Source: an uncultured Candidatus Saccharibacteria bacterium
Lineage (GTDB): Bacteria; Patescibacteriota; Minisyncoccia; Phycocordibacterales; PALSA-1337
DNA: 27,623 nt
Assembly (NCBI GenBank): GCA_964630815.1
Contig: CAZVXQ010000001.1
Coordinates: 1-27,623, forward strand
Reading direction: 5' to 3'
Under the pieces are notes generated by a model. The model was given only the letters and a program-made list of their open reading frames with translations. It did no database searches and was not told the DNA's origin. Of the stretch, positions 2,734 to 26,677 are shown one piece after another (position 1 is the first letter of the stretch; the number at the start of each line of letters is the position of its first letter). A program made the position numbers and the translations under genes.

Positions 2734-2738
2734 ATTTA

Positions 2739-3096
2739 AGTCATACCATAAGCCGAATTCTGTTGCATATGTCAGACATATGCATGACAACCATTTGTCT
2801 GGTCCCAAAATTACTTTTGAGATCGAGCGGTTCTTTTTTGATAAACCTTGCGGTTTTCAAAAACACGACCTTGCACCGAAGTAAGGATTTTGCCGTTGCA
2901 ATCCTGTGTTACCACAGGCTTCATCCGTATTGCTACGGAGCTTTTGCCTTTCGACTCAAGCGTCACTGTTCGCACCTCTGGTTATTAACCTGACGGGTGT
3001 TACCCGCTACTTGTTTCCACCAACTTACGTCAGTGGCGGTGTTCGGACTTTCCTCCCTAAATTGCAAGCAATGTAGAGCGGTTGTCTGGTACAACT
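2739..3096 (-). ncRNA. rnpB: RNase P RNA
   Basis: The minus strand has the universal GAGGAAAGTCCG and ACAGAATTCGGCTTAT (P4) motifs. P1 AGTTGTACCA/TGGTATGACT defines the ends; P2 GACAACC/GGTTGTC, P18 with GTAA loop and a P19 hairpin are visible. Confidence 0.95.
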
Positions 3097-3102
3097 ATTG
3101 CA

Positions 3103-17374: not shown

Positions 17375-17410
17375 GGGGAGTCGAAGCTTACAGCTTCGGT
17401 ACAGGTTTCG
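17375..17410 (+). repeat. 36-bp perfect direct repeat, copy 1
   Basis: GGGGAGTCGAAGCTTACAGCTTCGGTACAGGTTTCG, identical to 21415-21450. Confidence 0.92.
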
Positions 17411-21404: not shown

Positions 21405-21425
21405 GTGACCCTACGGGGAGTCGAA
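21405..21425 (-). other. tRNA 3'-end fragment (T-loop, T-stem, acceptor 3' strand; Glu-like), candidate att site
   Basis: The minus strand reads TTCGACT-CCCCG-TAGGGTC-AC; no tRNA 5' half is present upstream. Confidence 0.55.
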
Positions 21426-21556
21426 GCTTACAGCTTCGGTACAGGTTTCGCGCGGTGCTCGCTTCGCTGCGCGCCGCATGCTCAACCTTTTCGACTCCCC
21501 GCCGCTCGCGCGCAGGCGCGAGCTTAGGCTCACACTCGCTACGCTCGTGTGACCCT
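21414..21556. other. GC-rich multi-hairpin palindrome, candidate single-strand origin
   Basis: IRs CGGGGAGTCGAA/TTCGACTCCCCG (21414-25/21490-501), GCTCGCGC/GCGCGAGC (21504-23) and TCACAC/GTGTGA (21530-52), with CTCGCTWCGCT loops. Confidence 0.5.
21415..21450 (+). repeat. 36-bp perfect direct repeat, copy 2
   Basis: Identical to 17375-17410. Confidence 0.92.
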
Positions 21557-22384: not shown

Positions 22385-23050
22385 ATGAACCCAATCCAAG
22401 AAAAACTCATAGAGCTATCACAAAAACACAATATTAAGAAAATGGGCTTAAGACATATAGGAAGACTTATCGGCATTGAACATCCCCAAACCATAAAGTA
22501 CCACTTACAAAAACTCGGATTACTTGATGGTAGTAAGAAGCAGAGACCTGATGTAAAGAAAATTATTATTCAAAAAAAACCTAAGCAAGAACTTATTTCT
22601 GTACCTATTTTAGGACTTGCTAACTGTGGAGATGCGACCATGTTTGCCGATTCGAAGGTCGAAGGTAACCTAATGCTTTCTTCCAAATTATTGTCTTGCA
22701 GAGATTCACGTAATTTATTCGCAGTCCGAGCAGTTGGTTCTTCTATGAACCAAGCAAATGTAAATGGAAAAAATATTGACGATGGCGATTATGTTGTTGT
22801 TGATGGTAAAGATAATGATGTCAAAACAGGCGATTATGTCCTGTCCGTTATTGCTGGGCTAGCAAACATTAAAAAGATTGTCAAAGATGATTCCCAAAAA
22901 CAAATTGCCCTGATATCTGAATCGAAGCAATTCTTTCCGCCAATTTACCTTCACTTGGATGATTTAAACGATTATATAGTTAATGGTAAGGTTGTAGATG
23001 TTATAAAAGAATCAAATGATACGAATGATATTCGATACGAACCCCTTTAA
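22385..23050 (+). CDS. LexA/cI-like S24 self-cleaving repressor
   Basis: N-terminal HTH (GLRHIGRLIGIEHPQTIKYHLQKL); VPILGLANCG cleavage loop; RAVGSSM (Ser) and ANIKK (Lys) dyad. Confidence 0.88.
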   Translation: MNPIQEKLIELSQKHNIKKMGLRHIGRLIGIEHPQTIKYHLQKLGLLDGSKKQRPDVKKIIIQKKPKQELISVPILGLANCGDATMFADSKVEGNLMLSSKLLSCRDSRNLFAVRAVGSSMNQANVNGKNIDDGDYVVVDGKDNDVKTGDYVLSVIAGLANIKKIVKDDSQKQIALISESKQFFPPIYLHLDDLNDYIVNGKVVDVIKESNDTNDIRYEPL

Positions 23051-23076: not shown

Positions 23077-23976
23077 ATGAACATAGATATTATAGAAAAT
23101 GAGAATCTACCTATAAATAGATTAAAAAGTCTTGCTAAAGAATCTACATCTGTTAGCGCCAATTTAATTCTTGGTGATTGTCTCGATGTGCTTAAACAAA
23201 TTGAATCGAATTCTGTTGATTTAGTTGTGACTTCACCGCCCTATAGTGACCAACGAGGTTCCACTTATGGTGGCATAAAACCAGAAAAATATGTTGAGTG
23301 GTTTACTCCTATAACTGCAGAATTATTGAGGGTTCTAAAACCTACTGGCACTTTTGTACTGAACATTAAGGAAAAGGTTGCTGATGGTGAAAGGCATACT
23401 TATGTATTAGAGCTTATTTTGGAGATGCGCAAACAGGGATGGCTTTGGACTGAAGAGTTTATTTGGCACAAAAAAAATTGCTATCCGGGTAAATGGCCTA
23501 ATCGATTTAGAGACGCATGGGAAAGACTTTTGCAATTCAACAAGGACAGAAAATTTAATATGTACCAAGACAATGTAATGGTACCTACTGGTGATTGGGC
23601 TAAAACAAGACTCAAGAATTTAAGTGAAACTGACAAAAGGCGTGATAATTCCAAAGTTGGAAGCGGTTTTGGTAAGAACATATCTAAATGGGTTGGTCGT
23701 GATATGGCTTATCCAAGTAATGTTCTGCATATGGCTACAGAAAGTAGTAATAAAAATCATAGTGCTGTATTCCCTAAGGAGTTACCTACGTGGTTTATTA
23801 AATTATTTACAAAACCGGGAGATGTTGTGTTAGACCCTTTCCTTGGTTCCGGTACGACTTGCATTGTTGCTAAGCAAATGGGGCGTAACAGCATCGGCAT
23901 TGAGATAAAAAAAGAGTATTATGATGTTGCGAGTACAAATGTCGCTAGCGTACAATCATCACTTCAGCTTTTCTAA
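23077..23976 (+). CDS. Beta-class N4-C/N6-A DNA methyltransferase
   Basis: GDC start, motif IV VTSPPY preceding motif I DPFLGSGTT, IGIEI. Confidence 0.93.
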   Translation: MNIDIIENENLPINRLKSLAKESTSVSANLILGDCLDVLKQIESNSVDLVVTSPPYSDQRGSTYGGIKPEKYVEWFTPITAELLRVLKPTGTFVLNIKEKVADGERHTYVLELILEMRKQGWLWTEEFIWHKKNCYPGKWPNRFRDAWERLLQFNKDRKFNMYQDNVMVPTGDWAKTRLKNLSETDKRRDNSKVGSGFGKNISKWVGRDMAYPSNVLHMATESSNKNHSAVFPKELPTWFIKLFTKPGDVVLDPFLGSGTTCIVAKQMGRNSIGIEIKKEYYDVASTNVASVQSSLQLF

Positions 23977-23980
23977 ATTT

Positions 23981-24751
23981 ATGACTAAATTAAATCAAGA
24001 AGAATTATTTGCTTACATATCAGAGACTGTTATGAAGCCGTTTTATGAGATAAGATTGGCTAAACTAACTGCACTAGATTTACATTCAATTCTCAAAAGG
24101 AAAAACCCGTATCTTTTTAAGGCGAAAAATATTGAGACAAGTGGAGACCTTGTAAAATATATTTTAGACGCTTTTCTTTCCTCACAGGAAGAAACGATTT
24201 TTGGTAATTTACTCGAATCGCTTGCTATTTTCATTTGCGAAAAGGTCTATAAGGGGCACAAAGCAGAACAAGGTGTATTAAAGAGTGTTGACTTGGAATT
24301 TATCAGGGACGGTAAATATTATATTGTTGGTATAAAGTCTGGTCCTAATTGGGGCAATAAGGACCAAGTGGACAGAATGAAATTCAATTTTAGATTTGCT
24401 AAGAAATTGTTGCGAAAGAAAGGAATTGAGAATGAAATAGTAGCAGTAAATGGCTGTATTTATGGGAAAGACAATAACCCATTTAAGGAGGATAAAAACC
24501 CCGAGGAAAGCTACTATAAACTGTGTGGCGAAGAATTTTGGGAGCTAGTCTCTGGTGATAGAGAGTTATATAAGAAAATTATTTTGCCGCTTGAAAAGGA
24601 AGCTAAAAAAAGAGGTGAGCATTTCTCTGAAATTTATGCCTCAAAGAGTAACGAGATGATAAAGGAATTTTCTGATAATTTCCTAACAAAAAAGGGTCTT
24701 ATCGATTGGGAAAAAATTATTGATTTTGTTTCAAAGAAGAATGGTGATTAG
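23981..24751 (+). CDS. Type II restriction endonuclease, EcoO109I/PmeII-like PD-(D/E)xK
   Basis: KRKNPYLFKAK, SSQEETIFGNLLESLAI, VDLEF…IVGIKSGPNWGN; starts 4 nt after the MTase stop. Confidence 0.8.
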   Translation: MTKLNQEELFAYISETVMKPFYEIRLAKLTALDLHSILKRKNPYLFKAKNIETSGDLVKYILDAFLSSQEETIFGNLLESLAIFICEKVYKGHKAEQGVLKSVDLEFIRDGKYYIVGIKSGPNWGNKDQVDRMKFNFRFAKKLLRKKGIENEIVAVNGCIYGKDNNPFKEDKNPEESYYKLCGEEFWELVSGDRELYKKIILPLEKEAKKRGEHFSEIYASKSNEMIKEFSDNFLTKKGLIDWEKIIDFVSKKNGD

Positions 24752-24908
24752 GCCTTGCGAAAGCAAGAAATAACCCTGCAAGATTGTTCAGACACTGTTC
24801 AGCCATTTCTTCTGAAAGAATTACTCCGTTTTCTTCTCTAAAAATCGTTATAGTCTCGTTAATTAGTTTTTGACTGTATCGGTGTGGTGGTATCTCTAGC
24901 TGATTCAT
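24717..24908 (-). CDS. Small acidic helical protein
   Basis: YSQKLINETITIFREENGVILSEEMAEQCLNNLAGLFLAFAR; overlaps both neighbours, so the start is uncertain. Confidence 0.5.
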   Translation of the reverse strand: MNQLEIPPHRYSQKLINETITIFREENGVILSEEMAEQCLNNLAGLFLAFARPNHHSSLKQNQ

Positions 24909-25086
24909 TTATCGGTTTGTTAGATTGTAAATGTTTCTCAATTTTTTCGAGCAGGTCAGTAATTCTATTTATCTTCCAGTACCAAGTAACAAGCTCTCTG
25001 ATAACCATGAAGAAAATGAATCCCCAGAATAGGTAAAGCAATAAATCTGATAGATGTACTGAAGGAAAAAATGATGCGATATTCAT
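24859..25086 (-). CDS. 75-aa single-pass membrane protein
   Basis: LLLYLFWGFIFFMVIRELVTWYWKINRITDLLEKIEK; first ORF after the structured RNA. Confidence 0.6.
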   Translation of the reverse strand: MNIASFFPSVHLSDLLLYLFWGFIFFMVIRELVTWYWKINRITDLLEKIEKHLQSNKPINESARDTTTPIQSKTN

Positions 25087-25106
25087 AATATTTGATTATT
25101 AAATAC

Positions 25107-25240
25107 AAAAAGCCCACCACATAGGTAGGAGCCGAAGCCCCTCATGCCAGTTTCCCGACATGGCCAACGAGGACACCCTATATGATGGGTTCTTTGTCCT
25201 CGTTGGACTTCGTTCGCCATGCCCTTTCGGGTTTAGGCAC
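25107..25240 (-). ncRNA. Structured leader / cloverleaf RNA with competing terminator (C4/CI-like)
   Basis: GAAA and cUUCGg hairpins, a 13-bp closing stem with G-U pairs only on the minus strand, a 12-nt internal antisense pair, a terminator with U5, and upstream TTGCTG-17-TATAAT (25260-25288). Confidence 0.6.
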
Positions 25241-25581
25241 CATATTCAATTGTGGTCTAATTATATGATGTTATTGAGGTATCAGCAACATTGACTTCAC
25301 ATACAACAGAGCTACACTTATAGCAGGATTCAGATTAGAAAGGACTTTGACTTTTTAAGCACGCCACTCTTAAAAAATTATATTCAAAAATTTCTATCTA
25401 TATCTACTCGTGGCAAAAAATATTTACCCTATAATTAAGTTATAAAAAAAATAATATCCAAAGGGAGTCATTGTGATATTTTGCTCATAAAAGTTAGTAG
25501 ACCTTATCGTTAGGTCTGCTTTTTGCCGTGTCCAAACGGCGAGCTTTCTTTCTAACCTGTATCCCAACAGGTGCTTTTTGA

Positions 25582-25670: not shown

Positions 25671-26495
25671 ATGAGAATGGATAATAAATATGTAAAACTA
25701 GTGTTCTCTGGCTCTCGTATCGAAACATACGAGCATGATAGGCCGTTAATGCCTCGTTTTCAGCCTGAAGATGGTATTAAACGTGTTCGAGCAAAGATTG
25801 AAGTAACTGATGAAGAAAGCAGACAGAGAAAGGAGGAGGCTAGGAATAAAGCTGTCTACAAGGCTCGTACTGACCTTACAAGGCTGATTTACGCTAATGC
25901 ATGGCATTGGTTCGACTCTGATGGCAAGCCTTACCTGCCCGTTTTCATTACCCTTACTTTCCGTGATGATATTCGTGATTTGAAGCAGGCTAACCATGCC
26001 TTTTCTAATTTTATTAAGCGTCTTAATTTTCGTATCGGTGAATCAAAAGCCAGTATCTTGAAGTATGTCGTTGTGCCTGAATTCCAAGACCTTCATCGTG
26101 GCGGTGTCGTTCACTATCATGCACTCTTTTTCAATCTTCCGTTTATTTGGAAGAGTGAGCTAGAGGAAGTATGGGACGAGGGCTATGCCAAAATCCGAAA
26201 GATAGACAATCTTGATAAGGCTGTTGGATATGTCTGCAAATATATTGCAAAGAAATTTGATGACCATCGCCTTGACGGCCAAAAACGATTTTCTCCTAGT
26301 AGAGATTTACTCAGGCCTTTTGTTTCTAGGGATAGAGGCATGCTTGGCTATGTCAAAGATATTCCGAAAAATTGCACTATAAAAGTTCAGGAGTACGACA
26401 GCCACTACCTCGGCCATGTTAAATATACGCAGATTCAATTGAAAAAGGGCGAATCAATTGGAGATTACATTTCTGTACCTGAAAATTTCCAATGA
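25671..26495 (+). CDS. HUH-superfamily rolling-circle replication initiator (Rep)
   Basis: Motif 1 FITLTF, motif 2 VHYHALFF (preceded by EFQD..RGG), motif 3 YVCKYIAK with two tyrosines. Confidence 0.88.
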   Translation: MRMDNKYVKLVFSGSRIETYEHDRPLMPRFQPEDGIKRVRAKIEVTDEESRQRKEEARNKAVYKARTDLTRLIYANAWHWFDSDGKPYLPVFITLTFRDDIRDLKQANHAFSNFIKRLNFRIGESKASILKYVVVPEFQDLHRGGVVHYHALFFNLPFIWKSELEEVWDEGYAKIRKIDNLDKAVGYVCKYIAKKFDDHRLDGQKRFSPSRDLLRPFVSRDRGMLGYVKDIPKNCTIKVQEYDSHYLGHVKYTQIQLKKGESIGDYISVPENFQ

Positions 26496-26677
26496 TAAGC
26501 CTTGAAGAATTAAAAAAGATTGACCCTGCTTTGCAAAAATATTCTGACAAGGAATTGCTAAAAATCCGTGCCCTGCTCTACTCTGCTGGCCAGTTGGCGA
26601 TTGAAAGCTATGTTGCCAGTAAAAGCGGTTCCAAATATCCCAGTGGGGATAAGAAAAAGATTGACGATATGGTGTAG
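26492..26677 (+). CDS. 61-aa helical protein between Rep and recombinase (candidate RDF)
   Basis: ATGA overlap with the rep stop; ends 9 nt before the recombinase ATG. Confidence 0.65.
   Translation: MISLEELKKIDPALQKYSDKELLKIRALLYSAGQLAIESYVASKSGSKYPSGDKKKIDDMV

Follow-up and report, generated by a model that had tools for sequence, protein, structure and literature searches.

LOOT RNA as a candidate two-state leader of mobile-element operons in Patescibacteria

What might a tightly folded RNA be doing on the minus strand, just ahead of a small membrane-protein gene, and is it really a new one? A preliminary description of the window (by which we mean the whole 27,623-nt stretch of DNA that was analysed) had taken the region for an unannotated cloverleaf RNA of 77 nt, with a built-in antisense target and a terminator switch, resembling and perhaps homologous to the immunity RNAs P1 c4 and P4 CI. 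All of the structural features that it listed are indeed present on the minus strand (Table 1): the promoter, which can be read directly, the tetraloop-receptor-like 5' hairpin, the exact 12-nt complement, the 13-bp stem of the cloverleaf and the two tetraloop hairpins. The folding itself stands out from chance, with z-scores of -4.4 for a 146-nt region and -5.4 for the 77-nt cloverleaf, and with none of 200 shuffles equalling it. What these parts belong to is a different matter, and it is here that the answer begins.

Identity and genomic setting of the RNA

On the strength of its covariance-model match, the locus is a typical copy of the Rfam family LOOT (RF03000) and not a new RNA class. 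It scores 73.2 bits against a gathering cut-off of 46.4 (E 7e-14) over the whole of the model (positions 1-121 of 121), and alignment to the Rfam consensus structure recovers the four-hairpin architecture, with a receptor-like P1 and stable tetraloops, the P4 loop being UUCG here as against GNRA. LOOT is the sole significant Rfam match around the locus at E≤10, the remainder being noise, and the 12-nt complement and the two tetraloop hairpins turn out to be its own P2 stem, P3 and P4, while the 13-bp stem lies outside the Rfam model. The proposed homology with P1 c4 and P4 CI finds no support either, nor does processing by RNase P: the C4-type Rfam families (C4, c4-2 and c4-a1b1), which had been suggested as the check, give no match at E≤10 in window positions 24900-25500 on either strand, and ARAGORN found no tRNA- or tmRNA-like gene in the window. 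Any likeness of LOOT to these RNAs is at most one of regulatory logic, not of kinship. A bacterial class A RNase P RNA gene lies elsewhere in the window, at 2734-3097 (-), with 109.2 bits against a cut-off of 100.

The Rfam entry of LOOT gives its function as unknown. The motif stems from Weinberg et al. 2017 (PMC5737381). In the papers searched, LOOT is named solely in the Rfam 14 paper (PMC7779021), which shows it among its 'metagenomic-based' RNAs, and none of them speaks of a 'LOOT motif'.

Table 1. Parts of the LOOT leader and of its surroundings, in window coordinates
Feature	Position	Strand	Basis or remark
sigma-70-type promoter	25260-25288	-	-35 TTGCTG 25288-25283, spacer 17 nt, -10 TATAAT 25265-25260
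Conserved 5' box ACAATTGAATAT (family consensus ACAAYTGAATAT)	25242-25253	-	about 6-7 nt past -10
LOOT RNA, P1 to P4	25127-25239	-	Rfam RF03000, 73.2 bits, whole model
P1 hairpin, variant 11-nt GAAA-tetraloop receptor	25215-25239	-	CCUAAA opposite CAUGG; Rfam consensus alignment
a1, 5' strand of P2a (the 'built-in target')	25195-25206	-	exact 12-nt complement of 25164-25175; Rfam P2 stem
5' strand of the long-range helix: A-rich linker (25194-25190) and P2 apex (25189-25177)	25177-25194	-	RNAduplex, covariation
a', 3' strand of P2a, unpaired in fold A	25164-25175	-	Rfam P2 stem, folding
P3 hairpin, near-invariant GAAA loop	25143-25162	-	Rfam alignment, covariation
P4 hairpin, UUCG loop	25127-25142	-	Rfam alignment, compensatory changes
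Predicted terminator: 3' tail (25125-25113), C, U-run (25111-25107)	25107-25125	-	family U-run; outside the Rfam model
ORF of 75 aa, predicted single-pass membrane protein, first gene after the leader	24859-25086	-	ORF list, hydrophobic segment
ORF of 63 aa overlapping the end of the 75-aa ORF; possibly no real gene	24717-24908	-	ORF list
LexA-like S24 peptidase	22385-23050	+	cargo convergent with the LOOT operon
N4/N6 DNA methylase	23077-23976	+	cargo convergent with the LOOT operon
EcoO109I-type restriction endonuclease	23921-24751	+	cargo convergent with the LOOT operon
Rolling-circle Rep	25671-26495	+	Pfam PF23343, PHROG rolling-circle initiators
ORF of 61 aa between Rep and recombinase	26492-26677	+	
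Large serine recombinase, cut by the contig end	26687-27622	+	Pfam PF00239 and PF07508

Where, then, does LOOT live? The window's genome (724 kb in 119 contigs) carries a second copy on another contig, and surveys of genomes place the family in Patescibacteria: of 101 related genomes 38 have LOOT, as do 29 of 150 sampled across the phylum, and the 14 controls have none. The sequencing runs listed as containing the sequence are all DNA metagenomes. When named genomes were scanned with a pattern, there were hits in Parcubacteria/Paceibacterota and the Taylor-, Nomura-, Zambryski-, Kaiser-, Adler-, Magasanik- and Levybacteria, together with MAGs labelled "Saccharibacteria", and true LOOT RNAs are found on four IMG/VR contigs. 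Three pattern matches in MAGs from outside the CPR (L104, L108 and L157) are due to chance and are not LOOT.

The mobile-element and CPR setting that had been surmised is supported. In the window, Rep, the 61-aa ORF and the serine recombinase form a module of the element that is divergent from LOOT. Across the family, a large serine recombinase stands within 5 kb of 23 of 53 copies, the other neighbours including AAA_25 helicases, rolling-circle Reps, DNA methylases, LexA-like proteins and terminases. The window also holds a perfect 36-nt direct repeat on the plus strand (17375-17410 and 21415-21450, copies 4040 nt apart); the two copies may be the scars of attachment sites, and the right one would then lie at the left boundary of the element that bears LOOT.

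The family is organised like a leader. In 48 of the 53 loci the consensus TTGACA, 17 nt, TGnTATAAT stands upstream at a fixed distance, and again in 48 a near-invariant 12-nt box, ACAAYTGAATAT, follows the -10 element at a fixed distance and precedes LOOT P1 by 12-28 nt. Since it begins about 6-7 nt past the -10, this box is the predicted start of the transcript; inspection found no pairing partner for it. A gene on the same strand usually comes next, no more than some 70 nt away, whereas on the upstream side 37 of 49 loci have a divergent gene. Of 49 proteins encoded first after the leader, 27 carry a hydrophobic segment at the N-terminus, compared with 21% of background ORFs. At the window locus the U-run ends 20 nt ahead of the ATG of the 75-aa ORF (at 25086). 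Neither this ORF nor the 63-aa one has a Pfam or PHROG match, and for the 75-aa protein, which has a hydrophobic segment, a protein atlas returned weak leads, all of them small hypothetical membrane proteins.

Two competing folds

The heart of the matter is a helix that the public model leaves out. Two folds can be drawn for the leader. Fold B is the Rfam structure, in which the 12-bp P2a (a1 with a') would close a long hairpin and leave the 3' tail free. Fold A is the cloverleaf, in which the linker and the P2 apex would pair with the tail over 13-19 bp, directly before the U-run, enclosing P3 and P4 and leaving a1 and a' single-stranded. At the window locus the core of this long-range helix is the 13-bp pairing of 25189-25177 with 25125-25113, two G-U pairs included, and in the family the helix links the P2 apex with the 3' tail and reaches a length of 17-19 bp, after which comes the U-run.

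Is the long-range helix real? Printed with their flanks, the 53 copies have a conserved 3' tail that varies in step with the P2 apex, and in RNAduplex the linker and apex pair with their cognate tail at a mean of -24.1 kcal/mol, compared with -11.5±3.6 kcal/mol for distant non-cognate tails, the cognate tail outscoring every distant one in 43 of the 53 loci. For a set of 124 pattern hits wide RNAduplex windows proved too permissive, and alignment to a covariance model was used instead. In the MAFFT alignment of the 53 relatives (A1), which was not fitted to a model, the helix core is 98.7% paired and seven of its ten pairs are compensatory. A covariance model built to include the long-range helix (R1) yielded 98 further loci, all full length and all spanning the tail; in their alignment, which is fitted to that model, 13 pairs are 93.4% paired and ten of the 13 have changed on both sides (one of them is AU in 45 sequences, CG in 31, GC in 15 and UA in 5). 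Shifting the partner by a single column lowers overall pairing across the 98 loci from 94% to 44-46%. The pairing carries on into the A-rich linker and the U-run, and these covary too, as in ACUAAA-UUUAGU, ACUGAA-UUCAGU and AAGAAA-UUUCUU.

The hairpins of the RNA are conserved too. The receptor letters of P1 are invariant or nearly so in both sets (53 and 98 sequences), P3 is 95.7% paired in the MAFFT alignment and 99.7% paired in the 98 loci, with compensatory changes, and P4 has compensatory changes at all pairs in both alignments; the GAAA loop of P3 is the likely partner of the P1 receptor, a docking predicted from these conserved letters. A U-G wobble is retained at columns 92/170 of alignment A2 (in 89 of 98 sequences) and another at columns 89/173 (in 55 of 98), and these wobbles may tune the stability of the long-range helix against P2a. 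Both competing pairings are conserved and covarying in about 150 relatives, a number that overstates independence since the relatives are kin. We conclude from this comparison that the family as a whole has a conserved second fold that is absent from the public LOOT model, and the covariation that the preliminary description had asked of homologues is there for both of the alternative folds that it drew.

The two folds are finely balanced. The P2a duplex has a mean energy of -18.5 kcal/mol over all 53 relatives, and with each helix forced in turn the window locus folds at -58.0 kcal/mol (fold A) and -59.1 kcal/mol (fold B); the difference G(A)-G(B) amounts to +1.9±3.8 kcal/mol across the 53 relatives and -0.2±4.4 kcal/mol in the 98 loci. 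The 5' strand of the long-range helix sits between the two strands of P2a, at spacings of zero and one nucleotide, and because of these spacings the full 17-19-bp helix should be incompatible with P2a. We infer from this geometry that folds A and B exclude each other sterically; the 13-bp core alone might coexist with P2a as an H-type pseudoknot. Beyond the tail strand, at least four U in 8 nt are found in 51 of the 53 loci, and the long-range core (mean -20.8 kcal/mol over the 53) adjoins the U-run throughout. LOOT thereby has the makings of an attenuator, namely two conserved competing helices, one of them beside a U-run, with an exclusivity that is deduced from bases and geometry, and the earlier proposal that a change of fold leads to a terminator is supported.

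Some relatives offer a third site for the same strand. In 15 of the 53 loci a second copy of a1 directly precedes the start codon of the next gene, ten of these pairings falling below the 1st percentile of non-cognate pairs, and such a copy recurs in 28 of 121 independent loci, with 17 different sequences and, in 23 of the 28, an ATG no more than 14 nt away. No downstream copy is present at the window locus, and elsewhere in the window's genome none was found beyond chance, about 44 12-mers being expected when G-U pairs are tolerated. Forcing fold A or fold B leaves the accessibility of the start codon at 0.51 in either case (Wilcoxon p 0.81), in a nested folding that cannot represent pairing of a' with the downstream copy (a2).

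The second LOOT of the same genome (locus L070, G000:C38:1335-1469, minus strand, 72.1 bits) differs in its P2a. Its a1, CCTAGTAGAG, recurs 3 nt ahead of the ATG of a 327-aa protein whose N-terminus is signal-like. Inside the Rep gene of the window, 11 nt (26295-26305, plus strand) also match this a1 exactly, probably by coincidence, as about 0.35 such matches are expected by chance in the genome.

A proposed two-state leader and its rivals

How might all of this work? The account that we lean towards, with moderate confidence, is that LOOT is a two-state leader whose off state is the long-range helix with its U-run. Transcription from a strong promoter of its own would make it the 5' leader of a cargo operon, the operon belonging to a small integrative element (with rolling-circle Rep and large serine recombinase) in a Patescibacteria/CPR genome. 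In fold A the long-range helix and U-run would act as an intrinsic terminator, and where, as in some relatives, a copy of a1 sits at the ribosome-binding site of the next gene, the a' strand set free in the same fold could also mask that site, which would work in the same, off, direction. In fold B, transcription would read on into the downstream membrane-protein gene.

It might of course be simpler to suppose that LOOT is a free-standing, trans-acting sRNA, its long-range helix a constitutive, pseudoknotted terminator and the downstream gene independent of it. This would sit well with the Rfam entry, which is typed as an sRNA gene, with the strong promoter of its own and the near-universal U-run, and with the fact that both folds at the window locus put a hairpin before the U-run; a local hairpin of 5-6 bp adjoins it there as well, so that termination could be constitutive in both folds of this copy. 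The AT-rich spacer could, moreover, hide a separate promoter for the 75-aa ORF. However, in 45 of the 53 loci the first ORF of 90 aa or more that follows has the same orientation as LOOT, after a median gap of 63 nt that could hardly hold a further promoter. A plain terminator would not call for two conserved helices that compete at equal energy, and the a1 copies found at the start codon of the following gene link the RNA to it. We consider a purely free-standing RNA doubtful.

A bolder idea takes up the c4/CI comparison: LOOT would be an RNA immunity system, or bistable switch, of CPR prophage-like elements, in which the terminated fold-A RNA exposes a' and captures the leader sequences a1 and a2, in trans as well as in cis, with premature termination and blocked translation of a harmful downstream gene as the outcome. 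In P4 (seqA, seqB and seqC) and in P1 (a1, a' and a2) an antisense segment is likewise flanked by an upstream and a downstream target, and that order, found in 23-28% of LOOT loci with at least 17 distinct sequences, mirrors theirs; LOOT also heads the operons of integrative, phage-like elements. Were the idea correct, a' would force nascent leaders into the terminating fold, the off state would propagate itself and silence the cargo operon, and LOOT would be a counterpart of P4 CI in function, though unrelated to it in fold. Yet the C4-type and tRNA-like features are missing from the searches described above, and the window locus lacks an a2 and its genome a target beyond chance. The regulatory logic claimed in the preliminary description has an echo in about a quarter of the relatives, those with the downstream copy of a1. 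We also considered P2a as a hypervariable determinant of specificity and rejected it: its identity is 0.40-0.48, compared with 0.43 for P4, and a strand that is no more variable than P4 bears no signature of an immunity-specificity determinant. Both the trans-acting immunity RNA and the outcome ascribed to it seem to us unlikely.

Returning to the two-state leader, one may still ask which fold terminates. The preliminary description held that fold B frees a local terminator hairpin, which would make the fold-A cloverleaf the anti-terminated, on state, and at the window locus the minimum-energy fold does pair CCUACC with GGUGGG ahead of the U-run. Against this polarity, the local hairpin borrows three bases from the conserved P4, and its median energy across the family is -3.5 kcal/mol, as against about -21 kcal/mol for the long-range stem; it is weaker than -2 kcal/mol in 18 of the 53 loci, and loci of the L037 type have none. 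Because the long-range stem always abuts the U-run and the local hairpins are weak, fold A, not fold B, is the likely terminating (off) state in these folding models, so that the polarity was probably reversed and its original form looks quite improbable. One subfamily (loci L033, L038 and L035) has UUYAGUG in place of the U-run, together with downstream hairpins that compete with the tail. In L038 a U-run comes after the last of them, and the arrangement resembles a relay-type expression platform; relay hairpins of this kind are plain in L038, ambiguous in L080 and L082. The L038 hairpin and its U-run need a sequestered tail in order to form, so that fold A once more comes out as the off state, which speaks against the opposite polarity.

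That the structure works as DNA, for example as the single-strand origin of a rolling-circle replicon, is scarcely credible, since even though a rolling-circle Rep lies 430 bp away and single-stranded DNA also tolerates G-T wobbles, such a Rep is found in just three of the 53 LOOT loci (the others have AAA_25 helicases or none), a GAAA tetraloop with an 11-nt-type receptor is a pair of RNA tertiary motifs, and a consensus promoter and a U-run flank the element.

Significance and comparison with known systems

For the window alone this is a modest result, a typical LOOT copy. For the family it means rather more, as LOOT has so far been an orphan, a well-folded RNA seen in metagenomes and filed as an sRNA, with neither host nor function. 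The window locus and its relatives, about 150 of them, place it in Patescibacteria (CPR), at the head of the cargo operons of integrative, phage-like elements, and the conserved second fold turns a family without a function into a specific and testable two-state leader model, in a phylum about whose RNA-based regulation almost nothing is known.

How does LOOT compare with what is known? Like P1/P7 c4 and P4 CI, it is a structured RNA encoded in a leader on a mobile element or phage, with a terminator after it and a strand that is complementary to an upstream site and, in roughly a quarter of LOOT loci, to a downstream site at the ribosome-binding site. Unlike them, it has one antisense segment and not two loops, its fold is another (four hairpins and a tetraloop-receptor), it matches them in neither sequence nor structure, and the window copy is without the downstream target. 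With attenuators and the expression platforms of riboswitches LOOT shares two conserved, competing helices of similar energy, one of them at a U-run, in a 5' leader, but its predicted terminator stem forms at long range, around two hairpins of about 60 nt. Compared, finally, with the public LOOT model, which ends at P4 and is typed as an sRNA, the present description adds the 3' tail, the long-range helix and the U-run, the promoter and start box, the downstream copies of a1, and the setting in the integrative elements of Patescibacteria.
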